Below are positions 4,101 through 25,054 of a stretch of 64,000 bases of DNA, piece by piece. Under the pieces are notes generated by a model. That model saw only the letters and a program-made list of their open reading frames with translations, was not told the origin of the DNA and did no database searches. The stretch's first letter is position 1, and the number at the start of each line of letters is the position of its first letter. A program made the position numbers and the translations under genes. The stretch spans positions 1 to 64,000 of the forward strand of contig JBFMAF010000040.1 in NCBI GenBank assembly GCA_040755995.1, given 5' to 3'. Origin of the DNA: Acidobacteriota bacterium (GTDB lineage Bacteria > Acidobacteriota > CAIWXX01).

Positions 4101-4279
4101 TCGGCTGCCATCTCAGCACTGACATGGGCTATGCGATTTGCGCAACGCGCGCCCGCGTCGATTCCGGCGACTGCCATGTCATCGGCGCCGGCGACGGCGA
4201 CATGCGGTTCCTCCCGGTCGAGCCACTTGTTGGGCGTACGATACGCCGGGGGAGCAGTACCGGCAGCACATCCGACTGA
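1178..4279 (+). CDS. Ser/Thr protein kinase with N-terminal Zn ribbon, one TM helix and C-terminal WD40 repeats
   Basis: CTHC..CPAC; GKGGMGVVY, HRDLKPEN, DFG, GTPAYLAPEQ; TM segment PLILLTIAILAVATSLSLVYL; WD repeats LASASDDKTVAIWE and SVSSDGTIKKW. Confidence 0.92.
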   Translation: MDFRLCTHCHQAYAQYTTCPACRSPLSLADEAYFVGEIFGKYRIESVIGKGGMGVVYRAVHTGLGRAAALKTVFLETPNESLLKRFKREAQLLAQLDHPCIVEVIDYDVSGWGIPYYVMALLTGRSFREILNVQNRSRMPYDYAPIIRDVAQGLAYAHGKGVVHRDLKPENIQVHLAEQRVRAKILDFGIAKVIAAQTWATTLTITGGIAGTPAYLAPEQILGTEIGPYTDQYAMALIVAEIIAGRPVRESRLLGEIIQKEIAQPLLIEGPGVSREITDALKRATQPAPGDRFPDVLSFVRALGLAESGEGDAYVLGSGLLDTPGAEGQPVGGPVHIGDDTRRHDGPRTLAHPSRPDTRPALPLTLESGRAVRRRPRTPLILLTIAILAVATSLSLVYLRRPRSAVVATPSPVQAPAPLPLFQKLLDLPVPADATSVLTRKDNIVVVGGQQCVYVVSKDPTVAPARIPLSPDQEVLSGTPFGEVYLRDGDRIVLKTFVPEKEVAWAEGLPGARSLHLSPDGSRLAAVQEGRTEIYERQEARFKKSWDIRAGVDDVTRLEQGGLALRISREYLAMLVKGRLHAYSLTTRRLLLDAAVPEMQFSSLAVDDASGCVAVGGWFSSVYFFDLQKGGAGSSIPVHGRTGALLFLPDHPTLVIGSEAGIMLWRPREGEVASFGSDENNIQSLQFAGYPLVALDSRQHKLILLAYREIPIARSVSLSKSEIWAVDSDDSHVYAGGGSSDGTLYTYGIEDQRVSAYSVHSLGITSLAHHGNHLASASDDKTVAIWEIPSMKVIWRSRAHDFLVNGLFVQGQPPSLWSVSSDGTIKKWAWPSLEDVLSISTSDVAGRRYSLQCVWVDPSESTIVAGTWRNALLVARRGATGTWTAKVYRVPSPGIYQMAYLPAITSLILVGCDHPSGVYVYDLRRGVLHSLPAFETVLNAVTADPDGSSAHVYGLGVVLDYRLSMDDAGALQYEIGCHLSTDMGYAICATRARVDSGDCHVIGAGDGDMRFLPVEPLVGRTIRRGSSTGSTSD

Positions 4280-9162: not shown

Positions 9163-12100
9163 TCAGGACTCTGAGCGCCAGAGAGTCTCCGCCGCGAAGC
9201 AGGTCCAACCCCACTTGAGCCATCTGACGAGAGAGACGGCAAGCCAGAGGGCCCAGGCGAGCATCGCAGCTCGATAGACCATCAGCGGCACCGAGAACAC
9301 CCAGGCGACTGGCAGCGTTTCATCGGACCGATCCTGGTACCAGCGCAGGAGCTGGGCGGTGGATCCGTTGCCCCGGATCTGCATGTCGGGGAGCCCGAGG
9401 AGCCCCTGTGCTATAGACCAGAAGAGGCATGCGAGGGCCACAAGCGTGAGCAACACGAGAAGCACCTGGATCAGGTTGAACGACCTGCTGGACGCGGACG
9501 GCCTTTCTTTACGGGCTCCGAGGGCCAGGAGCCAGATGACCACGAGGGCAGCTATGATGATCGGCGACTGCGTGAGCCCGAGGCCGAGCAGGAACCACTG
9601 CTTCCAGCGGAGCGGCGTGAGTTTGATCTGGCCAAGCCCGATGCTCGCCAGAAGGAATACAACCAGCAGGCTCCAGAAGAGAACCGCCGGACCGAGCCTG
9701 GGCCCGCCCACCAGGAGCGTCCAGCGATCAGCCGGCATCGTCACAGCCGCGTCGGCATTGACGCTTGCCAGCCCCGTGTCGAGGAGAGGCGTGCGGAACC
9801 GCAGCCCCACCCCCATGGATTGCTGCCACTTGATCTGTGCATTGTGAGACCCGGGCGTGACAGGGAACGTGACGCTTCCTTTCTCCAGCCGCAGCGGTTG
9901 GGCCACCCCGTCGATCGTCAGAAGTTGCAGGTCGGCTCCGTCGGGGAGTTTGACGATGTGCTGGCCGCCGCGGCTGCTGCGATAGCTCAACGTCAGCGTC
10001 GCGTCCGTCGCGCGCCGGCCCGGCATCACCGCCAGCGCGCTGTGGTCAATCGTCATGGTCTGCCCCGCAACGCCCTCGGGACGGCTGATGTCGATCTCGA
10101 CAGTCTCAGCCGGCCACGGGTGCCACTCGCGCACGCGCACGGGCGAGCCGCCCGGCGACAGCACCTGCGGAATGCCCCTGGTTTCGATGTGCCACATCGG
10201 GCTCGCGTCCAATCGCCAGACCTCCACCCATGGCACCGAATCCGGAGCCTTCAGCGCGATGCTGCCGGCCTCGGCGATCACCGATTCCCAGCGTACCTCG
10301 GTCGCCTGCGGACTCATGCTGACCAGCGCCTTCCGTTCCTTCGCCCTCACATCCGCGCTGGTGATCGACTCGCCCGGCAGAAGCGGCACCTCCACAACGA
10401 TCGCCGCTCCCACAGGCGTGAGCCGCGCGACACGGGTCTCGACCAGCCAGGAGAGCCCGACGCTGATCTCACGCTCTACTCGCACGAACGGCGGCAGCGA
10501 TTCCTGCGACAACAGCTCGCCGGTGCCACCTCGCGCGCCTCGCACGCGCGATAGCTGCAGGTTGTCCTCCGCGAGACCGTCCTCGTGGAGACCGTCGAGT
10601 ATCCAGCCGCTGACGCTGGCCTCCACGCGGTGCGGCTTGAGCGGCAGCGGAATCTGGACTGTGTCGCGGTCCGGCAGGGCTCCTTCGAGCAACACCTGAT
10701 GCGTGCCCGGCGAGAGCGGGATCCACAGAAGCCCGTCGCTCGTGCGCAGCATGCCTCGCGCCGGCGCCTCGTCGATCAGTACGCGATGGGGCGTCCACTG
10801 CTTGGCGATGCCCGGCAGCGGCACCGCAGTCACGGCTGCAGCGTCGATCTGTATGCGCGCTCGCAGGAAGGTTGGCGCGACTTCCAGTCTCATCCGCGGG
10901 CTCTGCGCACACTCAGGCTGGCAGCCGGGCTTCTCGAGCAGGCGCTTCCGGAGCTCCTCGAGCATTCCGCCTGGGGGGTACTCGGCACCGACCGCTGAGA
11001 GAGGATGCGCCAGCAGTAGGACCACGACTAGTGCAGCGGCGGACTTCGCACCTCCAAATCTGCCGCGAAGGCCGCGCAGAATCGGGCCCACAGGCTGGCC
11101 GAGCATGCAGAGCACGAGGGCAACCGCAAGCAGGATGCGAACGAAGGCGAGCACAAACTCGACGGACGGCGGGATCAGTAACAGCCGCAGCCGCTGATCG
11201 GCCTTCACCGGACCGCTCCACGCTAGCCTGACCGGGCTCATAGAGGTCCAGCAGGGAAGTCCTGGACCGGTGGATACCTGCGCTCTGGGATCAGGCGCGC
11301 GCACATTGCTTTCTTTCCAGGTTGCGATCTTGGCAGCTCTCCGGGTCGCGACCTCAGCCCGACTCGCCACATAGCCGAGGGACTCAAGCTGCTGCACCTT
11401 GTCCTCCACAGCCTGCTGACGCGCTCCCGGCTCCTCAGCCTTCTGGTGTGCTTCTTCCTCGAGGCGCGCTTTTTCCTCTGGCACACTCTCCACTTGCGCC
11501 GGGGCGACCAGTTTCTGCGGCCCGGGCGGGGGAGGAGGCGGCGGCTCCGGTATCACCTTCATCGTGGCCCGGGGTTCGGCGATCGGTTGCCCAAGCATCA
11601 TCGCATCAAACAGCCCCCAATCGCTGCGGCCGGTCCACGGTTGTTCGAGCTGCGGATAGATGGCGCCGCGAGCCTGCAGGATCAGAAACGGAATCGCGAT
11701 CAAGACAAGCACTACTCGAACCAGCATCCGATACGCTTTCATCCATCGCAAGAAACGTCCCTCTGGGAGCGCCCGGACGAGGGCTTCACCTGTGAGCAGG
11801 AAGAGCCACACCCACTGCGGCGCGCTCCTCTCGTGCCACAGAAGCACAACCGTGAGCAGGGCCACGGCGCCCCAGCGGCTGCCCCACAGTTTCATTGCGG
11901 AGATGCCGATGATCAGCACCAGGAAAAGATCGAGAAGGGTCCATGCGTCAATCCAGGTGGGCGACGCCCTGTCGACACCAATCGCGTGGATCAGGCGCCA
12001 GCCGGGAGGCAGATGGAGCGTCGCGGAGACTTCTTCGAAGTCGTGGTTCCAGCTCACCGCCGGCAGACTCAGCGTCGTCCCGTCGACTCGACTGTCGGAC

Positions 12101-13389
12101 TCCAGACTTAGCTGCCCCTGGCGCACTTCGATTCCCGCCGGGGCTCCTGGCTTGAGCGACGTTATGAACTGATCCTGGCCCGCGATGGCGACCCGCCCGA
12201 GCTTCGCCGGCGGCTGCATCTCGAGCCGCCACGACCGGCTGAGCGTCCCCGCGATGTTGTCCTTCACGGTGTAGCCGCCGCTCTTGAAGTCGAGCCAGAA
12301 CGTGCGATCCAGGGTCAGGCGGTCGGGGGCAGGGTCCGAATCGCCGCGCTTGCGCTCGACGAGCTTCATCGTGTCGCCGGGACGCACGAGATACGCCGGC
12401 AGCGTCCGCCACTCTTCCGGGAGCTGTGTCTGCTGTGGATCTATCGACGGCACGCCTTCGACGTTGACTACGCGCAGCGCCGGGCGCGCGTCGAATACCC
12501 AGGCTTCGTCCGTGTCCCACGGCCCATCGGGCGCCGGCAACGTCATGGCGCCTACAGGCCCCTCATGCCGCGCGGTCAACTCCAAGTTCCAACTGCCGCT
12601 TCTGACCTGCACGCGCAGGTGACCGTCCGGGTCGAGCCGCGACGGCAGAGGTCCTTGGAGCGACATCGGAACGAACCCCTCGGGCAGCGCCCGCCCGAGA
12701 GTGACTTCGCGGTTCCGTCCGGACACCTTGAGCTCCAGGCGCGTCACCAGCACGAGCGGGATGTCATCGACGATGCGGCGGTGCACGATGACGTCGAGGC
12801 GGTTTTCGGCTTCTTCGGCCGCCTGAGCTTTCTGAAGCCAGAGACGGCCTTGCTCATCACGGTTCGGGAATTCGACACGCCGGCCCCGGACCGTCACCGC
12901 GAGCAAGCCGGTCCCGGCAGGGACTTGCAGGAGCTCGGGGAGAGAGTCCCACTGGAAGCGGCCCGCCACCGAATGCACGCCAGGCGACAGCTTCACGCAC
13001 GGTGCGCCTTCCCGCGCGATCACCACGGCCGGCGCCCCGTCGACTCTGACGTCTTGTGGCCAGAGCTTCGAGTCGCCCGGCAATGCGGCCCAGTCCTCGG
13101 CGTAAACCCGCCAGTCTTGAGTGAACTGCCCGGACTTTTCGTCCAAGACCAGGGTGAGGGCTCCAGGCCAGACGCATTCCTGCCGATCCTCGGAGCCCAG
13201 AAAGAACGGGCAGAGCTGCCCTTCATATCCATGAAGCACCCAACCGACCCACGGGGCCAGCGGCTCCGGGACCTTCTCTCGTTGATCAGTCTGGGCGGCC
13301 GCAAAGTGGAGCGACGCGAGGAGACCGAGCGACAGTCCCAACGTCACCCTGATACCGCGCAACGTCGACGAATCGTTTCTTGCTGGCAT
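9163..13389 (-). CDS. Large uncharacterised polytopic membrane protein with an internal duplication
   Basis: 1408 aa; signal peptide; two soluble blocks each followed by a TM cluster; GGAGG RBS. Confidence 0.85.
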   Translation of the reverse strand: MPARNDSSTLRGIRVTLGLSLGLLASLHFAAAQTDQREKVPEPLAPWVGWVLHGYEGQLCPFFLGSEDRQECVWPGALTLVLDEKSGQFTQDWRVYAEDWAALPGDSKLWPQDVRVDGAPAVVIAREGAPCVKLSPGVHSVAGRFQWDSLPELLQVPAGTGLLAVTVRGRRVEFPNRDEQGRLWLQKAQAAEEAENRLDVIVHRRIVDDIPLVLVTRLELKVSGRNREVTLGRALPEGFVPMSLQGPLPSRLDPDGHLRVQVRSGSWNLELTARHEGPVGAMTLPAPDGPWDTDEAWVFDARPALRVVNVEGVPSIDPQQTQLPEEWRTLPAYLVRPGDTMKLVERKRGDSDPAPDRLTLDRTFWLDFKSGGYTVKDNIAGTLSRSWRLEMQPPAKLGRVAIAGQDQFITSLKPGAPAGIEVRQGQLSLESDSRVDGTTLSLPAVSWNHDFEEVSATLHLPPGWRLIHAIGVDRASPTWIDAWTLLDLFLVLIIGISAMKLWGSRWGAVALLTVVLLWHERSAPQWVWLFLLTGEALVRALPEGRFLRWMKAYRMLVRVVLVLIAIPFLILQARGAIYPQLEQPWTGRSDWGLFDAMMLGQPIAEPRATMKVIPEPPPPPPPGPQKLVAPAQVESVPEEKARLEEEAHQKAEEPGARQQAVEDKVQQLESLGYVASRAEVATRRAAKIATWKESNVRAPDPRAQVSTGPGLPCWTSMSPVRLAWSGPVKADQRLRLLLIPPSVEFVLAFVRILLAVALVLCMLGQPVGPILRGLRGRFGGAKSAAALVVVLLLAHPLSAVGAEYPPGGMLEELRKRLLEKPGCQPECAQSPRMRLEVAPTFLRARIQIDAAAVTAVPLPGIAKQWTPHRVLIDEAPARGMLRTSDGLLWIPLSPGTHQVLLEGALPDRDTVQIPLPLKPHRVEASVSGWILDGLHEDGLAEDNLQLSRVRGARGGTGELLSQESLPPFVRVEREISVGLSWLVETRVARLTPVGAAIVVEVPLLPGESITSADVRAKERKALVSMSPQATEVRWESVIAEAGSIALKAPDSVPWVEVWRLDASPMWHIETRGIPQVLSPGGSPVRVREWHPWPAETVEIDISRPEGVAGQTMTIDHSALAVMPGRRATDATLTLSYRSSRGGQHIVKLPDGADLQLLTIDGVAQPLRLEKGSVTFPVTPGSHNAQIKWQQSMGVGLRFRTPLLDTGLASVNADAAVTMPADRWTLLVGGPRLGPAVLFWSLLVVFLLASIGLGQIKLTPLRWKQWFLLGLGLTQSPIIIAALVVIWLLALGARKERPSASSRSFNLIQVLLVLLTLVALACLFWSIAQGLLGLPDMQIRGNGSTAQLLRWYQDRSDETLPVAWVFSVPLMVYRAAMLAWALWLAVSLVRWLKWGWTCFAAETLWRSES

Positions 13390-13529: not shown

Positions 13530-14417
13530 TCAAGTGACGGCGAACTCGCCCCGCTTCTCGCTGGGCAGCAGCGAGAGAAAGGCGTCGTCGAGCCGGCATG
13601 GAGCCGCCGTGGCGCCGGGCGGCGGTTCCGACGCGATGAGCTTCACCAGCACGCGGCCGTTGAGCGGGCGTCTCTCAGTCACCGGGTAACGCTTTTCCAG
13701 CGCGTCCAGCCGCTCCGGCTCCACCTCCACCTGCCACACTCGTTTCGCTTGCGCCTCGATCAGCTCGCCCGGACGCCCGGCGAACTCTACCCGGCCGTCG
13801 ACGAGTACGCACAGCTTGTCCGCGGCGCTGCTGATGTCTTCCAGGATGTGTGTCGAGAATATGACACAGGCCCGCGTGCCGATTTCCGCGATCAGGTTTC
13901 GGAAAAACACGCGCTCGCCCGGGTCCAGCCCAGTCGTGATCTCGTCGCAGATCAGCAGCTCCGGTCGATGGATGATGCCGATGGCGAATCCCAGCTTCCT
14001 GCGTTCGCCGCCGCTGAGCGCCCCGGCGCGGGCCCCGCTGCGATTAGCCAGGCCGATCAGGTCGATATGCGCGTCGACCCAGCCGCGTCTAGAACTGCGT
14101 CGCAAACGATACAGGTCGTAGAAGAGCTCCAGATTCTCCCGCACGGTCAGATCATCGACGACCCTGATGTGTTGAGGAACGTATCCGATGCGCCGCCGCA
14201 GCGGGCGCACGTTCCGGGAAGGCTCGATGCCGAAGATCGTGAGCGACCCGGTGCTGAGAGCGAGCTGTGTGGTGAGAACGCGCAGCAGTGTCGTCTTCCC
14301 CGCGCCGTTAGGCCCGATCATCCCGAAGACACCCGCCGAGGCGTCGAGCGAAACGCCGCGGAGCGCGTCCGTGCCGTCTGCGTACGTCTTGGTGATGTCG
14401 CGCGCCACGACGGTCAT
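13530..14417 (-). CDS. ABC transporter ATP-binding protein
   Basis: GPNGAGKTT, LSGGE, LLICDE, STH. Confidence 0.93.
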   Translation of the reverse strand: MTVVARDITKTYADGTDALRGVSLDASAGVFGMIGPNGAGKTTLLRVLTTQLALSTGSLTIFGIEPSRNVRPLRRRIGYVPQHIRVVDDLTVRENLELFYDLYRLRRSSRRGWVDAHIDLIGLANRSGARAGALSGGERRKLGFAIGIIHRPELLICDEITTGLDPGERVFFRNLIAEIGTRACVIFSTHILEDISSAADKLCVLVDGRVEFAGRPGELIEAQAKRVWQVEVEPERLDALEKRYPVTERRPLNGRVLVKLIASEPPPGATAAPCRLDDAFLSLLPSEKRGEFAVT

Positions 14418-17107
14418 CGCGTCTGCTCGGCTCCCTGTGCGGCGGGCACACCGGAATCGACCCCGCGCGGCTGGTCGACGATCTCGAAGGTACCTCCCGC
14501 CGGCGCGTCCGACCGATAGATCTGTCCCTTGGGATCGAAGTCGATGCGAATCGGTCTCGACGAGAGATCCACTTCGAGCACCGCCTCATGGTCGACGAAC
14601 ACCTGGCCGTGCCAGGTGTCGCCTTCCATGGTGATAGTCGCCGGCACGATCATCCGGCCATCCCAGTCGTTCGCGATCGCCGCCCTGGCGTGGTACTTGC
14701 CGTTCGAAAACCTCCATGCGACGGGGGAGTGCGACAGGCGGTAGTGCGGCAGGCGCGCGTTCTGGTAGTAGTCCTCCCAGAACCAGCTCAAGTCCTGCCC
14801 TTGGACATGAGCCTCTTCATTGACGATTTCGATGAAATCATCCGGAGTCGTGTGGCGGAAGCGGTGCTCGCGGAACAGCCGCCGGACACAGGCATGAAAT
14901 CGGTCATGGCCGAGCAGCGTGCTGAGGCAGGTGAGGAGGCGCGAGGCCTTCTCGGAGTATTGCCCGGGACCCGACGCTGCGACTCGCTTATCTCGCCGGG
15001 CCCGCTCCTCCCATTGTGCGAGCACCATACCGCGTTCGATGCCGGCGCTGACGCGAGGAACGACAGGATTCGCACCGCGCACACTGTGACCCCAGGCGCC
15101 CAGCTGCTCGGTTCGAAGAAAGGCTCCGAGGCAGTCCCTGAGCCCCGTATTGTAAAAGGGGTGCGTGGCGGCCGGGCCGCACAACATGCCCGCCGGCATC
15201 AACCACTCGACGCCGATGAGCAGCGGCCAACCGGTGACTCGCACCTCCTGCGCGCGGAACGGCATGAAGAGGGTAGCGACAGCCAGATCTCCCTTGCCCG
15301 CGATCGCCTGCACGGGCCGCGTAGGCCGGTCGTCGATATCGTTCAGAAACGCGGCGATATCGGCCAGTTTCTCGGGCAGCTCGCTCTGATCGATCCGGCA
15401 GCCGGGCGGGTAGTAGATCTCCACCTGTCGCTCGCCCACCTGCTGCGTCGCCTTCCTGAGTGCGCCGGCCGCTATCGACAGAGACCCCAGCTCGGATGGT
15501 CCGTAGGTACCCTTGTAGCGATACACGGCGCCGTCCGGCGAATTCTCTACATTAGTAGTAAAGCCTGGGAACGCCGCCTGCCATCCCCCCGGGGATGTGA
15601 CTGTCGCCGCACACTCTACGGGGCCGTCGCTTTCCCCGTTCATCAGCAGAGGAAACCAGTGGTCGTCGGGCATGAACCAGCAGTAGGAGGAAGCAGTGTG
15701 CGTGACGGCCGGGGCCTCGGAGTGGTAGTAGTACATCCCGGCGTACCACCGCAGCGCGGGCTCGCTGAATCTCCCCAGCGCGGCCCGGTAGTAGTTGTCG
15801 ATGAAGCCCTCGAACCGGAGCCGTACGCGATGCCGGCCGCGACCGTCGCACCGGATTAGAATGCGGTCGAGGCTTCTTCGCAGAGCCTCCACCCCGCGAC
15901 CATCGATCGTGGCCAGTGGAACTCGCAACCCCGAGTTGAGCACAAACACGAGGTCGGTCGTTCCGGAAGTCTCGATCACGTACTCGCATGTCCCGCTGAT
16001 AGGCCGCAGGCGCGTCCCCAGCGTGATGTCGATCGCGATGGATTCGATCCGCGCAGACGGGCGGCCGGGCGCCGCGAGGTCAGCATCGGCCTGTTGCTTC
16101 AGCTCCCTCCACAGCTCCTTCCGCTCCATCACCTCCTTCACAATCCAACCGCCGAGGGCGACCGGCATCACAGCGGCGACGAGCAGGCTCGCCCAGAGGG
16201 CGGCGCCACGGCCTTCAAAGAGGAGGAAGCGGTGGAGCGTCGTATGGAACGGCAGCTCGGACTTCCACAGCCGGTGATGGTCGCTCTCGCAGCTCCGCGT
16301 CAGGCCGCACGCGATGACGATCAGCAGGATGCCGGTCGCCGCGAGGAAGACGCGTTGGGTCACGATCTGGGCGAGCTCGTAGGAACTGAGGAGCGTGAAT
16401 CCGAACCACGGATTGAGGACATGCTCGGCGCTCCAGTTTACGGCAGCCCAATCGAGCGGTCCTGCGCCCAGGACGCGCAGATTCAGGTCGAGCAATATCG
16501 CACCGATCCGCTCGGCCTCCCCGGCCATTGCCGCCTGCACAACGAAGTAGACGCCTGCCGCGAGGCCGAACAGGCCGAGGAGCTGCGTGAGAATGTGCCG
16601 GGCCAGGCTCCCGACGAAGAGCCCGGCTGCGGCGCAGAGGAACACGGCCGGAATCGTGATAACACCCAGCGACAGAAACAGGTCCGCGGCGCCGACGCGG
16701 CCAAAGGCCATCCAACAGCTTGTCGAGACCACGATCGCATGGGCCGCCACCAGGGCGGCCAGCAGGCACTGCACTGCGGAGAACTTCGCGAGCACATAGG
16801 CGGTCTCGCTCACACCTGCTTGCAGCACGGCCTCCTGGGCTCCAGGTTGCCGGTCACGCGCCAGCAAAGGCAGGGTGAGCACCAGGGCCCCGAGCTCGAG
16901 AAGCAGCAGGGCGGCGATAATCTGCGGCTGCGCGAACGCCTCGGGGGCCACGTCGATGTCCCAGTCCTCCGAAGGTCGCAGCCATGTGTGGATGATCACT
17001 GTGAGCACCACCAACCCGACGAGCAGAGCATACGGCAGCGCGCGTCGAAGCTGCCTGCGCAGCTCCGTTCGAAAGACGACCCTGAAGCCCGACCACGCAT
17101 CCGTCAT
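14414..17107 (-). CDS. ABC-2-type permease fused to a degenerate M1 aminopeptidase-like domain
   Basis: N-terminal multi-TM region (FRTELRRQLR...). The C-terminal YSEKAS..LLG..F...TPDDF...QDLSWFW resembles the M1 family. No HExxH is present. ATGA-coupled start. Confidence 0.75.
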   Translation of the reverse strand: MTDAWSGFRVVFRTELRRQLRRALPYALLVGLVVLTVIIHTWLRPSEDWDIDVAPEAFAQPQIIAALLLLELGALVLTLPLLARDRQPGAQEAVLQAGVSETAYVLAKFSAVQCLLAALVAAHAIVVSTSCWMAFGRVGAADLFLSLGVITIPAVFLCAAAGLFVGSLARHILTQLLGLFGLAAGVYFVVQAAMAGEAERIGAILLDLNLRVLGAGPLDWAAVNWSAEHVLNPWFGFTLLSSYELAQIVTQRVFLAATGILLIVIACGLTRSCESDHHRLWKSELPFHTTLHRFLLFEGRGAALWASLLVAAVMPVALGGWIVKEVMERKELWRELKQQADADLAAPGRPSARIESIAIDITLGTRLRPISGTCEYVIETSGTTDLVFVLNSGLRVPLATIDGRGVEALRRSLDRILIRCDGRGRHRVRLRFEGFIDNYYRAALGRFSEPALRWYAGMYYYHSEAPAVTHTASSYCWFMPDDHWFPLLMNGESDGPVECAATVTSPGGWQAAFPGFTTNVENSPDGAVYRYKGTYGPSELGSLSIAAGALRKATQQVGERQVEIYYPPGCRIDQSELPEKLADIAAFLNDIDDRPTRPVQAIAGKGDLAVATLFMPFRAQEVRVTGWPLLIGVEWLMPAGMLCGPAATHPFYNTGLRDCLGAFLRTEQLGAWGHSVRGANPVVPRVSAGIERGMVLAQWEERARRDKRVAASGPGQYSEKASRLLTCLSTLLGHDRFHACVRRLFREHRFRHTTPDDFIEIVNEEAHVQGQDLSWFWEDYYQNARLPHYRLSHSPVAWRFSNGKYHARAAIANDWDGRMIVPATITMEGDTWHGQVFVDHEAVLEVDLSSRPIRIDFDPKGQIYRSDAPAGGTFEIVDQPRGVDSGVPAAQGAEQTR

Positions 17108-20100
17108 GGCAGTTCCCATGAGAGCATGCTGATGCGCTGTTCGCCGATCATCGCGACGAACGCGTCTTCCAGGCGGGGTGGGTCGGCGCGAAAGCTGCCG
17201 ATCGGCGGCCGCATCTCTCCCACCACTCGCACGGCCCATCGCCCCTCGAGCTTGGACCGGCTCACGAACTGGCAGCCCTCGACGCACAAGCGCTCCATCT
17301 GCTCCACCTCGACCTCGCCCACAAACACCTTGCCCTCAAGCCGCTTCAGGCAGTCTGCTATGTCGCCGTCGTACAGAACGCGCCCGCGGTGGAGTATGGC
17401 GAGGCGCGAGCAGATCGCTTCGACGTCCTCGACCAGATGCGTCGCGAACAAGACGATGCGGTCCCGCCCGAGGCCGGCGATCAGTCTGCGGAAGGGGATT
17501 CGCACCTCGGGATCCAGGCCGCTGGTGGGCTCGTCCAGAATCAGCAACTCGGGGTTGCAGAGCAGCGCGCGAGCGATATCGACCCGCTTCGCGTAGCCTC
17601 CCGAGAGATCTCTAATGACCTTGCCGGCCTGGTCTGCAAGGCCTGCCTCTTGCAAGGCCTCGTCCACTCGCGCGAACCCGCTGAGCCTTCCCATGTACTC
17701 CAGGTACTCGCGCACAGTGAGGGCCGCGTAGCCGCCGCTGTTCTGGGGAACGATGTCAACTGTGCCGCGTTCGGCGGAACGTAGAATATCGCGCGCGCCG
17801 AGGATCGCGGCACCGCGCGCAGGCTTGAGATCGCCTGCCAGTATGCGCAGCAGAGTAGTCTTGCCGGCGCCGTTCGGCCCCAGCAGCCCGAAGACACCGG
17901 GCTCCACCCGCAGCGAGACCCGATCCAGAGCGATCACACCGGACTGGTTGCCGTACCGATGCGTGACGTTTCGGATCACGAGGGCGGGCGGGCCCGGTTG
18001 AAAGTCAGCCTGGGCGCCGCGCGTCGTGGGCAAACGCCGTAGCAGCAGCTCGGGCGAGAGCAGCGACCAGATCTCGCCGAGCATGAGTGCAGCGGCCGGC
18101 ACCCAGAGCAGGCCGGCCAGCTCCAGCGGCAATCCCGACACGCAGAGGCTCAGCGGCGCCAGCAGCCCCAGCACGGCGAGCTCGACGCCGGTCCGCCGCG
18201 CCGGGTGCCTCGCGGCCGCTCCCGCATTGGCTGCAAGGAAAAGCAGCACACTGCTCACGAGGAGCAGCGTTGCTTGCGAGCCCCATTCGCGCACTGTTCC
18301 GCTCAGCTCGATTGCAGCGCAGGAGCCCAGCATGACGACAGTCACGCCTGCGGCGAGCGACAGGATTCTCGAGTTGCCCGCGCCGCCGAGGGCGGCGGCG
18401 AGTGCTGTTGCAAAGACGGTGGCTGCCAGGAGGCAGACGAAGACTACCTGCACGCCGCTCAGGAACGCGCCCCGAGTCGTCACCCGTATGAGCAGGCCCA
18501 GGCCCGGCAAATTCGCGAGGTCCTGTGCAGCGAGGTCTCGTTGCAGCGGCGTGGTACCTGGTCTCAGCGTGACGGTGATTCTCTCGAACGCCTTTCCATC
18601 GCGCCTTTCCAGCGCACTGGGAGACTCGACAAGCTGCGGCTCCACAACATCTCCCACGGCCAGCGCCGTGGAGCCCGAGGAGCTCTTGCCGGACAATGGC
18701 AGAGGCGAATCGAGGATGGATGTGAGCCTGGGCGCACTCTCGCCGTCATCGTTCAACGCGAGCCTGCAGTTGAACCGGTGGCCGCGCCAGAGGACCTCAC
18801 CGGCTTCCATTCCTCGAGGTTGTGCCACGGCCAGGATCGCGAGTGCCTGATCGACCTGAGCATCGGTCGCATGGGCGCGCCGCTCCATCACCCAGCCCGG
18901 TTCCACGTGAGCTCCGGCGTAGTCGACTTCGACGACACCGCGCAGAGGCCGGATGAGGGGAGCGAGTGCGCGGCATTGCGTCTGCAGGTAGGCTCGATCG
19001 GGATGCTCGGCCTCCAGCCACAGCGTCTCGTCATTCGCAGGTTCCTCGTGAAGGATCGGCTGCGATCGGGTCAAGAACTCACCTTCGCGGGGTGGGAGCT
19101 GGTCGACCTGCCGGACTCGACTCACGCGTGGAACGGTCTCGATCGACTGGATGATCTTCTTCGCTGCGGACTCGGCGGTGCCTGTTCCAATGCGGCTGGT
19201 CAGAAACCAACGGTCCCTCTCGCGGTCCATGCGAAACGAAGCCACGAGACCGCTCGCCCGCAGTCTCATCGCGACATCGTTGACGCTCCCGTCGTCGCAC
19301 GACATCTCCACGTACACAAGATCACCGCGGCGTCCCAGGGCCTCGCCGCGGCGGCCCAGGTCTTTGAACACAGTGAAGAAGCCCGCGACACCGTAGACGA
19401 GGACGATGGAGGTAGCGAGCGCTAACCGGCGGAGGAATGCATGTCTCGCGCGAAGGGCCGTCCTGGTGAGCCGTCCGGCCGGGCTCCATCCAGCGGCCTC
19501 AATCGAATCTGTGGGCGGCCGCATCAGCAACGCGAGCACCACGGTGCCGCCGACGGTCACGAGCCAGGCTTGGGCCGCCTCCCATGGCACGATCGCAGGG
19601 GCATCGAGAAGGAGCGATGCCAGTGCGATGACCAGCCCGGCGACCGCAGCGAGGACCGCCACGCGCTTTGCGAATTCCGCCGCATCAGCACTGCGACGCG
19701 AGCAAGCCGACTGTACCAGGGACGCGAAAGCTGTCGCCAGACCCAGGCCCCAGCCGCAGAGAGCCTCCATGGACAAACTGCGCTGCGTCGCAGCAGCAAG
19801 GAGAGGCCACAGGGACGAGGCGCAGACGATGGCGCAGTCGAGACGCAGCACAGCTGCTGCATGCGCACCCGCTAACAGCAGCAGGACAGAGGTGAGACCG
19901 AGAAGGAGGGCGACGATCAGCAGCAGCCGCGCCAGAAACCGATGAGGATCGGCACGAGCATCGAAGATCAGATTCTCGCCGCCCGGCGTTCGCTCCTGTA
20001 TGCTCCGGAACACAGCACGCTGATTTGCGTCCGTCTTGGTGAAGACCTTCATCGAGATGTGTGGCACGCCGTCGATGAACGTGCCAGGGAGTCCAGTGTC

Positions 20101-20814
20101 GAAACTCGGTCGGAGCCTGGCGACATCGGCCAGGCGGATTCGCCGGCCCTGATCATCGATCCATTCCAAGCGGTCAAGATCGGGTGGAGCGCCTGAGCTG
20201 ACGCGGATCCGGCGCCGCTCGAATTCGAACGGACCGGAGGCAGCACTTCTCGCTCCGGCGATGAGCGATTGGACGTCAGTGACAGTACGCCCCGCAGCCG
20301 CCAGGCGGAGCGGATCGAGAGTAACCCAAAGAACCTGCCTTGGCGCCGGCGCGATTTCGATTCGTTCGACCCCATCGGTCGAGAGCACCGCCGGACTCAG
20401 GACTCGCTCCGTCCAGAGCGCGGCGGCGTCCCAATCTTTCGCCGGGACAAGGACGAGGAAGCAGGGCAATGCCGGCTTCTGCTCTGCCGGCATCCTCACG
20501 ACCGCACCTGGGAACGAGAGCGATGCCCACTGCAACACTTCAGTCGCGACGCTGGCCTCGTCGCCGCTGATTTCGATCCGTTGACTCCCGTCCGAGAAGC
20601 TCCATCGCAGTCTGCACTGTGGATAGCTGGCTCGGATGCGGCTCTCCTGCTTCACCCATGCCCGCTCCACGTCGCTCGCAGGCGCGTCGCATCCGTCGAT
20701 CGTAACCTGCACCCCGGCACCGGCAGCGGGGCAGAGCGACAGCGGCAGCCTGTTCCAGGCAAACACCCAGAAGAGAATGCCAGCGAAGCCCAGCCCGGCC
20801 CACCAGCGCTTCAC
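17104..20814 (-). CDS. Fusion of a divergent AcrB-like RND permease with a C-terminal ABC ATPase
   Basis: RND-like motifs (DGVERIE..VTLDPLRLAAAGRTVTDV, IRLADVA, KTDAN, SPSALERRDG) are in frame with GLLGPNGAGKTT, LSGGY, LLILDEPT and ATH. The GTG start overlaps the MFP stop. Confidence 0.8.
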   Translation of the reverse strand: MKRWWAGLGFAGILFWVFAWNRLPLSLCPAAGAGVQVTIDGCDAPASDVERAWVKQESRIRASYPQCRLRWSFSDGSQRIEISGDEASVATEVLQWASLSFPGAVVRMPAEQKPALPCFLVLVPAKDWDAAALWTERVLSPAVLSTDGVERIEIAPAPRQVLWVTLDPLRLAAAGRTVTDVQSLIAGARSAASGPFEFERRRIRVSSGAPPDLDRLEWIDDQGRRIRLADVARLRPSFDTGLPGTFIDGVPHISMKVFTKTDANQRAVFRSIQERTPGGENLIFDARADPHRFLARLLLIVALLLGLTSVLLLLAGAHAAAVLRLDCAIVCASSLWPLLAAATQRSLSMEALCGWGLGLATAFASLVQSACSRRSADAAEFAKRVAVLAAVAGLVIALASLLLDAPAIVPWEAAQAWLVTVGGTVVLALLMRPPTDSIEAAGWSPAGRLTRTALRARHAFLRRLALATSIVLVYGVAGFFTVFKDLGRRGEALGRRGDLVYVEMSCDDGSVNDVAMRLRASGLVASFRMDRERDRWFLTSRIGTGTAESAAKKIIQSIETVPRVSRVRQVDQLPPREGEFLTRSQPILHEEPANDETLWLEAEHPDRAYLQTQCRALAPLIRPLRGVVEVDYAGAHVEPGWVMERRAHATDAQVDQALAILAVAQPRGMEAGEVLWRGHRFNCRLALNDDGESAPRLTSILDSPLPLSGKSSSGSTALAVGDVVEPQLVESPSALERRDGKAFERITVTLRPGTTPLQRDLAAQDLANLPGLGLLIRVTTRGAFLSGVQVVFVCLLAATVFATALAAALGGAGNSRILSLAAGVTVVMLGSCAAIELSGTVREWGSQATLLLVSSVLLFLAANAGAAARHPARRTGVELAVLGLLAPLSLCVSGLPLELAGLLWVPAAALMLGEIWSLLSPELLLRRLPTTRGAQADFQPGPPALVIRNVTHRYGNQSGVIALDRVSLRVEPGVFGLLGPNGAGKTTLLRILAGDLKPARGAAILGARDILRSAERGTVDIVPQNSGGYAALTVREYLEYMGRLSGFARVDEALQEAGLADQAGKVIRDLSGGYAKRVDIARALLCNPELLILDEPTSGLDPEVRIPFRRLIAGLGRDRIVLFATHLVEDVEAICSRLAILHRGRVLYDGDIADCLKRLEGKVFVGEVEVEQMERLCVEGCQFVSRSKLEGRWAVRVVGEMRPPIGSFRADPPRLEDAFVAMIGEQRISMLSWELP

Positions 20815-21848
20815 GGCTGGGCCGTCTCGATCTTTACAAAAGTGCCGGGGGCGAGCCGGTCGAGGGCGCTGCGGGCGACCGCGTCGCCGGGGGACAGGCC
20901 GGATAGAATCGCGACCCACTGCGAGGTTTCCTCGCCCAGCGCGACCGGCTGCAGCACGACCGATCCGTACTTGCTGAAGAAGCTGCGGCGTTTGATGAGG
21001 AAGACGTGCGGTTGGCGGTTCACGTAAATCACGCAATCCGGCGGCACGCACACGGAAGGCGAGGCCGTGGACTTCTCGGCGCTGAGAACGGCGCGGGCAC
21101 CCGGAGCGAGTCCGGCTGGCGGGAGGAATGTGGCCATCACTTTGAAGCGGCCCGGAATGGTCTCGTCCGGCGTGGCCCGGCCGAGCGCCGCAGGGATGGG
21201 CGGTGCGTGGCCAACTGCAGTCAGATTCCATCGCTCGCAGTTCTCCATTCGCCGCCACTCCTCGGACTCGCAGTATCCTTCGAACTTCCAGCGATCCACC
21301 TGCGCGAGCCGGCAGAGCGGATCACCCTCGCGGACCTCGCCGCCGTCCGCCACATCCGTCCGCCACACGATTTCGCCGTCCACGGGCATGCGCACGCACG
21401 CGCGCGCGAGCTGAATCTCCACAAGCCGCAGCTCGGCCTGCGCCTCGGCCAGTCGCGCCTCGTACTCCCGCAGATCGCGGATCGAGATGAGACCGAACGA
21501 CTGCGCCTCGCGTTGCTGCTTCAGTCGATCCTCTGCGAATGCGAGCCGCTGTTTCATGGCCTCGCGGCGGGCCTCCAGCTCGGGCGAGCGAATCGTGGCG
21601 ACGCATTCGCCCTTCCGAAACCCGCGCCCCGGGTGCTCCCAGTGCACGGACCCGCTCAGCGGCGTGCGGAGCTCGGTTTCGTGCTCCGGGAGCACGGCAC
21701 CGCTGACCTCGAAGGTCAGAATGTTCGCGCCGGGTTTGATTTCAAATACCGTCACTCTGACCGCGTTGGCGAGGAATCGCTCCGGTGGTTGTCCGCAGCC
21801 GCTCAGGAGCCATGACAGCACTAGAACAGGCCAGAGAGCCCTTCTCAC
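20811..21848 (-). CDS. Efflux RND periplasmic adaptor (membrane fusion protein), lipoprotein
   Basis: Lipobox LSGC; alpha-hairpin; VRMPVDGEI..V..G..VREGDPL; ILSGLSPGDAV. Confidence 0.88.
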   Translation of the reverse strand: MRRALWPVLVLSWLLSGCGQPPERFLANAVRVTVFEIKPGANILTFEVSGAVLPEHETELRTPLSGSVHWEHPGRGFRKGECVATIRSPELEARREAMKQRLAFAEDRLKQQREAQSFGLISIRDLREYEARLAEAQAELRLVEIQLARACVRMPVDGEIVWRTDVADGGEVREGDPLCRLAQVDRWKFEGYCESEEWRRMENCERWNLTAVGHAPPIPAALGRATPDETIPGRFKVMATFLPPAGLAPGARAVLSAEKSTASPSVCVPPDCVIYVNRQPHVFLIKRRSFFSKYGSVVLQPVALGEETSQWVAILSGLSPGDAVARSALDRLAPGTFVKIETAQP

Positions 21849-22546
21849 TACTCACCTCCAACCAGGCGCTGCCGCCGCAACGAGGTTCCGGCGAACAGCA
21901 GGAGTGTCACAGCGACGAGGATCAGTGCGGATTCTCTGAGGAGTCTGTCGAGGCCCTGACGATCGGCCTCACCGCCCAGCACATCTCCCATGACCGGTAC
22001 CATGAGCGACACGCCCGCGAGCAGCGCGGCCGACTCCGTCCGAAATCGGACGCCGGTCAGGAAGCCGGCGGAGATGGAGAGGATGAGTGGGGAGGCTAGT
22101 CGCGCGAGCATCTCCTGCGTACTCACCGGAACGACGATCCACGTGACGAGCTGATTGGTGCTCAGGGCGCCCAACATGGAGAAGACCGCTACCAGGAGCA
22201 GGCGCCTGACGTAGACCGCAATCGGATTAGCCAGTCTGGATATGGCTGCGCGCACGCCGCATTGCGCGTCGCCGAGCGCCACCTCGGCGGCCATCACCAT
22301 GCCGACCAGCGCCCAGGGAACGATGTTGGCGAACCGGTAGACCGTCTCGACGTAGCCTTCCCCGTAGTCCTCGACGCTCCAGATGAACACGCACAGGTAC
22401 ACCTCCGCGACGACCAGTAGCAGAACGACGCGGGCTCGAAAGAGAAGCTTGAGCTCGGTCTCTATCAGTCGAAGCGTGGTTCGGAGCCATGGCCACGCGG
22501 GGAGTCTTGCGCGCCTGTCCGGCGCGGGCTGTGCATCGTTGCCCAT
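21848..22546 (-). CDS. Putative ABC permease-like membrane protein
   Basis: LIETELKLLFR followed by about six TM segments. The stop overlaps the MFP start. The start codon is uncertain. Confidence 0.6.
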   Translation of the reverse strand: MGNDAQPAPDRRARLPAWPWLRTTLRLIETELKLLFRARVVLLLVVAEVYLCVFIWSVEDYGEGYVETVYRFANIVPWALVGMVMAAEVALGDAQCGVRAAISRLANPIAVYVRRLLLVAVFSMLGALSTNQLVTWIVVPVSTQEMLARLASPLILSISAGFLTGVRFRTESAALLAGVSLMVPVMGDVLGGEADRQGLDRLLRESALILVAVTLLLFAGTSLRRQRLVGGE

Positions 22547-22553
22547 CCTTGTT

Positions 22554-22766
22554 CTAACATACCTCCGGACTGCGAGTTTCATTCCGCGCGCCGCCGGGCG
22601 CAAGCTTGTAGCCCAATGCGGCGTAATACGTGTTGTCATTGCTGCAATCGTCGATCACAATGATCTCTTCGGCTTTCTCCATCACCTCCGATGGAATGCG
22701 CCGGAGGGTGTCCTCAAGGGTGGTGACCGCATCATATGCGACAACAAGTATGGCGATTCGCTTCAT
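22554..22766 (-). pseudogene. Glycosyltransferase family 2, N-terminal remnant
   Basis: IAILVVAYDA..TL..TL.RIP...IIVIDDCSNDNT is a GT2 N-terminus. Similarity ends after about 54 aa. Confidence 0.8.
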
Positions 22767-24655
22767 CGGCTCATCTGCGCACGCAATGTCGCGCTGGAGC
22801 CGCCCGCCTGCGAACCTGAACCAGGCTCTGACGACATTGAGGGCCCCGCCGATCTGCCGCCATGGGACCAGCGACTGTCCAGACCGGTGGCCGGGATGGA
22901 AGCGCCATGCAGAACCTCGCGTATTTCAAGGCCGCGGTTGTGCCACAGAATGCGCGTCCCGGTCTCGAGGAAATATTCCCAGGCAGCCGCGTCCGATTGA
23001 TTCTCCCATCGGAGCACGCGGTACCCCGGGCCATTCAATCGTCTCACCTCATTCCAGTTGATGAACAGATGACTGTACCCCTCCCTCGCGATTCGATCGC
23101 CGATCTCCTCGGCGCTCCGGGCTTCCTCCACGATCTCCTGCGCATACTGCATGTCGTAGGCCGAGCTCACCTGATGGGGTCGTGGGCATCCCCAGGGCCT
23201 GCCTTCACCCACGATGAGAAGCCTCGCGCTGAGCGGCAGCAGAGTGCTGCATCGATCATAGCCCGGCAGTGGATCGCTTATCGTGACGCGGTGTCTCCAC
23301 TCCTGCGCTGAGATCCGGCCCGACCAGAGCTCATGTATCCCGAGCACCCCGAGCATGAAGGCGAGTAGCTGGTACAGGCCCAACAGCACACCGCATGCCA
23401 GGGCGACACCGGCGGCCTTTGCCAGCCTCCGCGAAAGACGCGCCGTTCCGGCCGACGCCAGGGCCGCCCACAATGCCGCCATCGGCATCGCGTAGCGGAC
23501 GGTGTGCGAGGTCGCCAGCCAGCCGGCGAGCAACATGACCAACACCAGACCTGTCATCCGTGTCCGCCAACTGCTCGCTCCTCTCGCTCCCAGTGCCCCG
23601 AGGACGGCCAGTGGGGCTGCGAGCAAGACCCATACGCCGAGCCCGCCCTCGCCCGAGGCAAGGTACGCGAGGGAGTCTACGAGTCCGGAGAGGCTGCGTG
23701 ATCCTTCGTGGACAAGGGCTCCGAATCGATCCGCGTCACGCATCGTCCAACCTGCCGTGTCTATCACACTCCTCAGGAGCGGGAAGACCGGGTTCCCTGT
23801 TTGGAGGAGATTCCGAACCAGCCAGAATGAGGGAACCGCCACCGCCACCACGCCCGCGGCGATGACAACCCGCGCTCTGGACCGATGGTAGATGAAAGCG
23901 GCCGCGCCGATCGCAAGTGCCGGGAGAGCGGCCTGGTACTTGGTAGCGAGAGCCAATCCGAGGGGCAACCCAAGTCGCCAGGGTGACAGACCGCCGTCTT
24001 CCGTCAGGTGGTGGAAGGCGGCCAGGACTCCGAGCAGCATCAAGTGGTCGACTGAGCCGACAGTGGCCAACCATGTCGCGTGCCAACAACCGATAAGCAG
24101 AGCCGGCGCGAGTGGGCTCCAACCGCCTCCCCCGAGATTACGGGCAATGGCTACGAGGGTCCCGAGGCAGATCACGAACATCGCCCAGTGCAGACCGGCG
24201 GCCGACTCGGGATGTGCCATCACCACAGGGATCATGTAAACAGTCTGACCAGCCAGCGGGAAGCGGCTCATGACGAAATGGTCCATGGGAGCATAGCTCC
24301 CGTTCATGAGCCAGCTCCATGGCAACCCGATGTGATATACGAGCGAGTCGTAGAAGTACGGTGGAGCCAGCCACGCCCAGGCCGCAGAAAGCGTTGCGGC
24401 ACAGTAACAGGCTGCGGTCTTCCAATGGAAACGGACCAGCCTGGCGGCCTTGACTGCGCCTGCGGTGAGGAGCAAGAGTCCAACGCACACAGCGGCGAAC
24501 GGCGAAACGATGGAAGCCGTCAGGGCCATGGGCCAGCACAGCAGACACCACCCACGTACCCACCGATCGCAGGCGGATGTGCCGCCCGCCAGGCTCCCCA
24601 TGCCCACAATTCCGGCGGCAATGCAGCCTGTCAATAGGACTGCGATCACCTCCAC
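22763..24655 (-). CDS. Polytopic membrane protein, putative GT-C-fold glycosyltransferase-like
   Basis: Many TM segments; YDSLVYH..LP, LATKY and TGNPVFP motifs; coupled to the GT2 remnant. Confidence 0.65.
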   Translation of the reverse strand: MEVIAVLLTGCIAAGIVGMGSLAGGTSACDRWVRGWCLLCWPMALTASIVSPFAAVCVGLLLLTAGAVKAARLVRFHWKTAACYCAATLSAAWAWLAPPYFYDSLVYHIGLPWSWLMNGSYAPMDHFVMSRFPLAGQTVYMIPVVMAHPESAAGLHWAMFVICLGTLVAIARNLGGGGWSPLAPALLIGCWHATWLATVGSVDHLMLLGVLAAFHHLTEDGGLSPWRLGLPLGLALATKYQAALPALAIGAAAFIYHRSRARVVIAAGVVAVAVPSFWLVRNLLQTGNPVFPLLRSVIDTAGWTMRDADRFGALVHEGSRSLSGLVDSLAYLASGEGGLGVWVLLAAPLAVLGALGARGASSWRTRMTGLVLVMLLAGWLATSHTVRYAMPMAALWAALASAGTARLSRRLAKAAGVALACGVLLGLYQLLAFMLGVLGIHELWSGRISAQEWRHRVTISDPLPGYDRCSTLLPLSARLLIVGEGRPWGCPRPHQVSSAYDMQYAQEIVEEARSAEEIGDRIAREGYSHLFINWNEVRRLNGPGYRVLRWENQSDAAAWEYFLETGTRILWHNRGLEIREVLHGASIPATGLDSRWSHGGRSAGPSMSSEPGSGSQAGGSSATLRAQMSR

Positions 24656-25015: not shown

Positions 25016-25040
25016 TGTGGACTCATGACGCGCTGTGTAG
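25016..25040. repeat. Dispersed repeat copy, 24/25 identical to the reverse complement of 47097-47121
   Basis: TGTGGACTCATGACGCGCTGTGTAG here versus TGTGGACTCATGACGCGCTGTATAG. Confidence 0.75.
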
Positions 25041-25054
25041 AATCCGGGATGCGC

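Follow-up and report, generated by a model that had tools for sequence, protein, structure and literature searches.

A total of five overlapping genes on the minus strand were annotated as one operon in a 64,000-nucleotide stretch of an Acidobacteriota genome (assembly GCA_040755995.1, contig JBFMAF010000040.1, positions 1 to 64,000; hereafter the window). One of them encodes a fusion between a resistance-nodulation-division (RND) superfamily transporter and the nucleotide-binding domain (NBD) of an ATP-binding cassette (ABC) transporter. The frame translates without a stop over its whole length, as a preliminary description of the window had stated, and the fusion was annotated from this frame together with Pfam, full-length homologues, an AlphaFold2 (AF2) model and Foldseek. 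Its features are the following, with transmembrane helices abbreviated as TM and AcrB numbering used for the proton-relay positions.

17104..20814, minus strand: RND2-NBD fusion gene, 1236 aa
18034..20814, minus strand: RND body, residues 1-927, with 12 TM helices and with the porter (PN/PC) and docking (DN/DC) subdomains kept (AF2, Foldseek and Atlas features, 0.92 to ACR_tran clusters)
19702..19770, minus strand: TM4, residues 349-371, with Q368/S369 at D407/D408, a core without Asp or Glu, and E350 at the periplasmic cap
18217..18279, minus strand: TM10, residues 846-866, without a charged residue and with Ala at the K940 position
18142..18201, minus strand: TM11, residues 872-891, with Thr/Leu at R971/T978, carrying E878 (18181-18183); low model confidence
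17983..18033, minus strand: linker, about 17 residues long, joining the TM12 end and the first strand of the NBD (AF2 model, low confidence in the linker region)
17107..17982, minus strand: fused ABC NBD, DrrA/GldA-like, ABC-2 type, residues 945-1236, with all motifs (Walker A at 17857-17880)

The GTG start of the fusion overlaps the stop codon of the preceding gene (GTGA) and its stop codon overlaps the next ATG (ATGA). Two relatives (P0003 and P0004) are 39% identical to the fusion over 99% of its length and a further member of the P0003 cluster (P0175) was also found. On these full-length homologues the junction is biological, and the assembly artefact that had been considered for it is ruled out. 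The long open frames of G003, G018 and G021 turned out to encode ordinary RNDs and not fusions. A search of representatives gave two strong matches (the query and P0004) among 18, and the best 80 matches of a metagenome scan carried out with the alignment of the clade (the query and three relatives) cover the ABC domain alone. The fusion was not found in the two other genomes of the window's family.

The N-terminal part has the fold of the RND superfamily in the AF2 model, with 12 TM helices and two large periplasmic loops forming the porter and docking subdomains, which bears out its earlier assignment. This model covers residues 1-1200 and was built from an 83-row alignment (mean pLDDT 75, pTM 0.57). 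The elements follow each other as TM1, the PN/DN subdomains, TM2-7, the PC/DC subdomains, TM8-12 and the NBD from residue 945, with pLDDT values mostly of 80-95 in the periplasmic domains and the NBD, 45-70 in the TM helices and below 50 at residues 886-939. Foldseek aligned the model with AcrB and AcrD over approximately 1030-1100 columns (E 5e-26, TM-score by target about 0.5, 13-15% identity). Pfam ACR_tran matched residues 135-275 with 24.7 bits, below the cut-off of 28, phmmer gave no match in the PDB for the RND part, and the VIA-align rows for the fusion were taken up by the NBD.

The C-terminal domain contains every motif of an ABC ATPase and is intact as had been described, with Walker A at residues 979-986, the Q-loop at Q1024, the signature LSGGY at 1070-1074 (SGGM in the family), the Walker B Asp-Glu pair at D1094/E1095 and the H-loop at H1126; ATP hydrolysis is predicted from these motifs. 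Pfam ABC_tran was matched at residues 963-1098 (E 4e-27) and the NBD superposes on the 1vpl structure with Z 28.1 and a root-mean-square deviation of 1.7 over 216 aligned residues. Within the clade the NBD is 67% identical whereas the RND subdomains are 21-44% identical. Other NBDs of the same subfamily in the window's genome adjoin ABC-2 or ABC-2/M1 permeases, with no RND reading frame seen there (L220-L222).

The excerpts used of PMC8277102 describe D407, D408, K940 and R971 as necessary in AcrB and T978 as bonding to D407. In our alignment these five columns are occupied by Q, S, A, T and L in the query, by K, T/A, A, L and L in its three relatives, and by D, N, N, R and T in 21/21 of a second, longer form of the fusion. 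Positions 971 and 978 were placed on what we presume to be the TM11 motif. The loss of the relay aspartates had been read earlier from residues 346-368 (window 19711-19779; AF2 TM4 spans 349-371) and it stands, with Gln and Ser at D407/D408 and no acid in the TM4 core. Judged from the aligned residues, the query has none of the five relay residues of HAE-1 pumps; its TM4 and TM10 are free of acids whatever the register, and the mapping of TM11 depends on the register. The AcrB DD/K pattern is an unsuitable baseline for this loss, as the intact members of the fusion family read D/N and N rather than DD/K. The same residues in TM4 (D/N) and TM10 (N) occur in a tandem RND pair without ABC parts (L012:5265-11593), so that the single-Asp motif exists without an ATPase and is probably proton-competent.

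Two forms of the homologous fusions were distinguished, which we call short and long. An Asp or Glu in the TM4 core was found in 21/21 long forms, 0/58 short forms and 0/4 clade members. The loss seen in the query is therefore shared by the clade (4/4) and by the short forms (58/58) but not by the long forms, where D407 is kept (21/21), and on this distribution (D407 in 21/21 long and 0/58 short forms) the fusion is judged to be older than the loss of the relay. The distance from the T978 column to Walker A is 97 residues in the query, 95-134 in the relay-less forms and 318-355 in the long forms. In P0005 (residues ~1040-1270) and the other long forms, TM12 is separated from the NBD by about 220 extra residues that include some three or four further hydrophobic helices; no relay-less form has these residues. 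Long fusions have also been named in Bacteroidaceae, and none of 914 records in a plasmid search covered 80% of a long fusion.

The fusion lies third in the operon, and the other four genes, all coupled to it or to each other by overlapping starts and stops, are listed below in the order in which they are read.

21848..22639, minus strand: permease B, an ABC-2-like transmembrane domain (TMD) of 263 aa from the first ATG; missed by the hidden Markov model (HMM) search, matched to cassette permease B by hhalign (94.7%, E 6e-8)
20811..21848, minus strand: membrane fusion protein (MFP, the periplasmic adaptor), 345 aa; TIGR01730 E 1e-21 (below cut-off), cassette MFP HMM E 2e-36
14414..17107, minus strand: permease A, an ABC-2 TMD joined to an M1-aminopeptidase fold, 897 aa; Pfam ABC2_membrane_2 and Peptidase_M1 (both weak), cassette HMM E 3e-37
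13530..14417, minus strand: free ABC NBD, 295 aa, motifs intact, its ATG overlapping the permease A stop

The true start of permease B may lie about 40 codons later, and 12 of the 58 members of its family match ABC2_membrane_2. The MFP contains a full-length hairpin in which the RLS tip positions are Q/A/S, and an LSGC sequence that we take to be lipobox-like. The model of permease A was matched to M1 aminopeptidases by Foldseek (E 7e-14), so the fold is that of the family; the HEXXH zinc motif is absent, with a vestige that aligns with the motif of L221/L222, and it is likewise absent from 63/64 cassette relatives. A seventh helix of permease A would, in the model, place the M1 body in the periplasm. 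With two ABC-2 TMD genes and two NBDs the locus has the composition of a type V (ABC-2) exporter, the coupling of an NBD being modelled for the fused NBD and permease B. No outer-membrane factor (OMF) gene was found in the operon, and 33 OEP domain matches occur elsewhere in the genome. A second RND gene, RND1, is absent from the operon, whose five genes overlap start to stop; the two-RND arrangement of MdtABC-type operons is therefore missing in the window and is present in most relatives.

These relatives came from a scan of genomes with three short fusions, which returned 80 loci, nearly all in Thermoanaerobaculia, Holophagales or Acidobacteriota, with the six-gene order free NBD, permease A, permease B, MFP, RND1 and RND2-NBD fusion. 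In 47/57 Thermoanaerobaculia-type loci with a full-length fusion, the fusion has permease A, permease B, MFP and RND1 as neighbours (L084, whose RND1 is shortened, was counted by hand within the 47), and the other 10 are cut by contig ends. Out of 401 Acidobacteriota genomes, 37 reach E <=1e-200 with the long-form profile; with the mixed profile, 42 reach E <=1e-150, the window's genome (G000) among them. Scoring was limited to two candidates in each genome, and some few of the matches are partial. Both permeases occur in 15/15 fetched long-form stretches in differing gene orders; in five of these (L204, L209, L210, L211 and L216) permease A is divergent, and the free NBD stands beside it in four. 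In the long-form cassette L210:9902-14014, the C-terminal 257 aa of RND1 were all that was found of this gene, abutting the divergent permease A, and the MFP and free NBD were not seen.

RND1 itself is degraded in three loci. Its relay is lost in L077 and L081 (single records of metagenome-assembled genomes), and in L084 (L084:5226-6923) it is reduced to 565 aa comprising one N-terminal TM helix and the periplasmic subdomains, still overlapping the RND2 start, in a single record that could be an assembly error. In the window's genome, which is 99.84% complete, no RND1 orthologue was found outside the operon, as 0/14 full-length RNDs group with cassette RND1. The best RND1 HMM match there (818 bits) belongs to a DD/K pair on contig C35; true members score at least 963 (self-included) except two degenerate ones at 604 and 752. 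In a FastTree tree of the RND proteins, the ABC-free tandem pairs (L012 and the pair on C35) are sisters to the long-form RND1 and RND2. We place the forms in a series that would run from ABC-free pairs to long forms with the relay in both RNDs, then to short forms with the loss in RND2, then to L077, L081 and L084, and finally to the window without RND1. The NBD motifs are intact at every sampled step, and the RND1-less end of the series is the element that is new in the window. Neither the RND tree nor the NBD tree, the latter made by a quick method, resolves the long branches, and neither shows that the fusion had one origin; the grouping of the query with the short forms in the RND tree may reflect long-branch attraction.

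A model of the complex between the fused NBD (residues 935-1200) and permease B scored 0.64, against 0.00 for the best control. This mark was reached by 116/157 solved complexes and 2/215 mismatches, a calibration that applies only roughly to alignments of our own making. Between runs, at least 85% of the contacts agree, the partner pLDDT is at least 71, and the modelled interface places NBD residues 1020-1045 on permease B residues 84-99 and 11-25. We consider it probable that the ATPase drives an ABC-2 exporter and that the RND body serves as a tether and as a periplasmic adaptor to the MFP. The protein would then be one subunit of a hybrid envelope exporter in which ATP is spent in the type V exporter and not in the RND. 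The model has the fused NBD gripping permease B in the usual manner, by the Q-loop groove and the coupling helix; the free NBD would sit on permease A, so that two permeases and two NBDs make up one heteromeric exporter. Because about 17 residues separate TM12 from the NBD, this exporter would have to lie beside the RND, against it in the inner membrane. The relay-less RND oligomer, with its porter and docking domains kept, would serve passively as an adaptor, holding the MFP and handing cargo on towards an outer-membrane channel encoded elsewhere. As for the cargo, our guess is a membrane-bound lipid or lipopeptide, for which the dead periplasmic peptidase fold could be the binding or holding site.

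The preliminary description had offered two options, a passive RND scaffold that tethers the ATPase and an RND that itself switched from proton-motive force to ATP. The first fits the evidence, and the second is disfavoured because the operon supplies ordinary ATPase partners, namely two ABC-2 permeases and a second NBD, and because the fused NBD docks on one of the permeases in the model. In a full version of the switch, the NBDs on the RND protomers would form dimers, either among themselves or with the free NBD, and these would power the porter cycle directly by way of TM12. The shortening of the span between the T978 column and Walker A, which is confined to exactly the relay-less forms, and the retention of the porter domains speak for such a mechanism. 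We nevertheless regard it as quite unlikely, as every complete cassette examined keeps two ABC-2 permeases, the coupling groove of the NBD fits permease B in the model, an RND trimer is ill-suited to an NBD dimer, and the linker region is of low confidence in the model.

Several observations weigh against an ATP-driven exporter with a passive RND body. The NBD and permease B form a textbook NBD-TMD pair, and the score of their model may reflect likeness to solved structures. The tip motif of the MFP is eroded and the operon lacks an outer-membrane channel gene, although the RLS motif is reported not to be absolute (PMC4446572, in part). Neither a cargo gene nor any other neighbour outside the six genes is conserved near the cassettes, and the RND1-less layout is known from the window's genome alone. 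The loss of the relay is also less clean than the TM4 columns suggest: in 33/58 short forms an acid stands four residues past the K940 position, where TM10 reaches the cytoplasm, and the TM halves of the clade could not be matched to those of intact RNDs by profile-profile alignment (hhalign probabilities of 0.15 and 0.06), leaving the TM register of the clade weak. Furthermore, 4/4 clade members keep E878 in TM11, and in three of them the D407 position is Lys. Lastly, RND1 keeps D407 in 46/48 short-form cassettes (four mis-picked or frameshifted loci were left out before this count) and in 12/12 aligned long-form cassettes, so proton coupling looks selected in most lineages.

The last two of these points bear on a reading in which both energy sources are used and the RND module is still proton-driven, either by an intact RND acting in trans, such as the pair G000:C35:209706-215920 in an MdtB2C-like heterotrimer, or by a new site around E878. 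That MdtB supplies energy while MdtC binds the substrate (PMC4338810, in part) gives this reading a precedent, and the C35 pair is sister to the long-form RND1 and RND2 in the tree. E878 may leave a candidate proton site in TM11, and of the acidic replacements at the relay site that had been foreseen as fatal to the loss, none was found in TM4 or TM10 of the query while this TM11 residue does persist throughout the clade. We still find dual energy use unlikely. In the tree the C35 pair lies with the ABC-free pair of L012 rather than with cassette RND1, and it is served by an MFP and a partner of its own; the query RND is approximately 13-15% identical to solved RNDs; 58/58 short forms have no acid in the TM11 core; and L077, L081 and L084 show that the relay can leave RND1 too. 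In the three relatives, the Lys at the D407 position (window 19711-19713) and the TM11 Glu could form a charge-reversed D407-R971 pair, where the query has Gln and the same Glu.

The RND body might also be a functionless, drifting relic beside an ABC transporter that alone matters. Long branches, the absence of RND1 and the lack of the fusion in the two other genomes of the family would agree with decay. Against it, all subdomains of the 927-residue body are intact in four clade proteins, of which three share about 39% identity with the query; the MFP is retained and translationally coupled, and the same body is found in 58 short forms. We hold decay to be very unlikely.

The genes around the operon were also inspected. 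A co-directional gene just upstream (window 22763-24655, minus strand) encodes a 630-aa polytopic membrane protein with a weak LIC_10190-family match (E 7e-7) that looks like a GT-C glycosyltransferase, and 141 bases downstream of the free NBD lies a gene for a 1408-aa membrane protein (window 9163-13389, minus strand) with no Pfam or NCBIfam match. Both were rejected as members of the cassette, with no tblastn match in any fetched locus. Further away, a single 975-aa frame (window 25025-27952, plus strand) encodes both a GPP34 (Golgi phosphoprotein 3) domain and a molybdopterin oxidoreductase, and a Ser/Thr kinase-like protein (window 1178-4279, plus strand) is, as read from its translation, fused to repeated beta-propeller-like sequence.

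The RND-NBD fusion is real and is undescribed within the open literature searched, where no paper on it was found, the Transporter Classification Database (TCDB), supplements and subscription journals lying outside this search. The portions seen of PMC3924187 and of the Lipocone preprint, the latter unrelated, do not mention such a fusion, and automatic names from the Joint Genome Institute (JGI) already label some long forms as AcrB/ABC ATPase. On balance we lean towards regarding the system as an envelope transporter of a new class, where an RND oligomer with one type V NBD covalently attached would be the periplasmic funnel and MFP adaptor of the ABC exporter; its members would form a graded series from proton-competent to ATP-only, with the window as the end point without a proton-competent RND in the cassette. 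Proton-driven RND and ATP-driven ABC exporters are taught as alternative engines of tripartite systems, and a covalent hybrid with stepwise loss of the proton machinery would, if confirmed, show that an RND head can be reused as a passive adaptor. The fusion also allows a direct test of an existing question, namely how relay-less RNDs like MmpL7 work together with ABC exporters. The RND1-less five-gene operon is the simplest version found and therefore the cleanest to express and image.

Among known systems, the closest analogue is MmpL7-DrrABC of mycobacterial phthiocerol dimycocerosate (PDIM) export, a likeness in the proposed working and not in membership. MmpL7 lacks the relay residues and has been proposed, without direct evidence, to act as a scaffold to DrrABC, a type V exporter (PMC11539658 and PMC8427324, both in part), and in both systems a type V ABC exporter that has two unlike permeases is linked genetically to a relay-less RND. 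However, MmpL7 is an MmpL-type RND with no MFP, is a separate polypeptide from the NBD and, in the portions seen of the same two sources, has no direct contact shown, whereas the RND of the window is AcrB-type, is covalently fused to one NBD and is accompanied by an MFP, a second NBD and a dead peptidase fold. The window system also has no conserved biosynthetic neighbours and does not belong with the MmpL-type RNDs of lipid biosynthesis clusters.

The six-gene cassette resembles MdtABC and MuxABC in having two RND paralogues and an MFP in one operon with a division of labour, as is seen between the paralogues of MdtB2C (PMC4338810, in part), and MdtB is the top PDB match of the long-form profile. 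MdtABC has no ABC parts and carries relay residues in both subunits, whereas the window has the relay-less subunit only. The full RND fold and the adjacent MFP are shared with AcrB-type HAE-1 pumps, from which the window differs by changes at all five relay positions, a C-terminal NBD and the lack of an OMF gene in the operon. The ABC-2 exporters L221/L222 of the same genome have an NBD of the same subfamily and a homologous permease-peptidase fusion, but they keep HEXXH, which cassette permease A lacks in 63/64, and have no RND or MFP. Finally, MacAB-TolC carries out ATP-driven envelope export through an MFP, which docks on the periplasmic domain of MacB itself; in the window, unlike in MacAB, it is the RND head that is proposed to dock the MFP for a different ABC fold.

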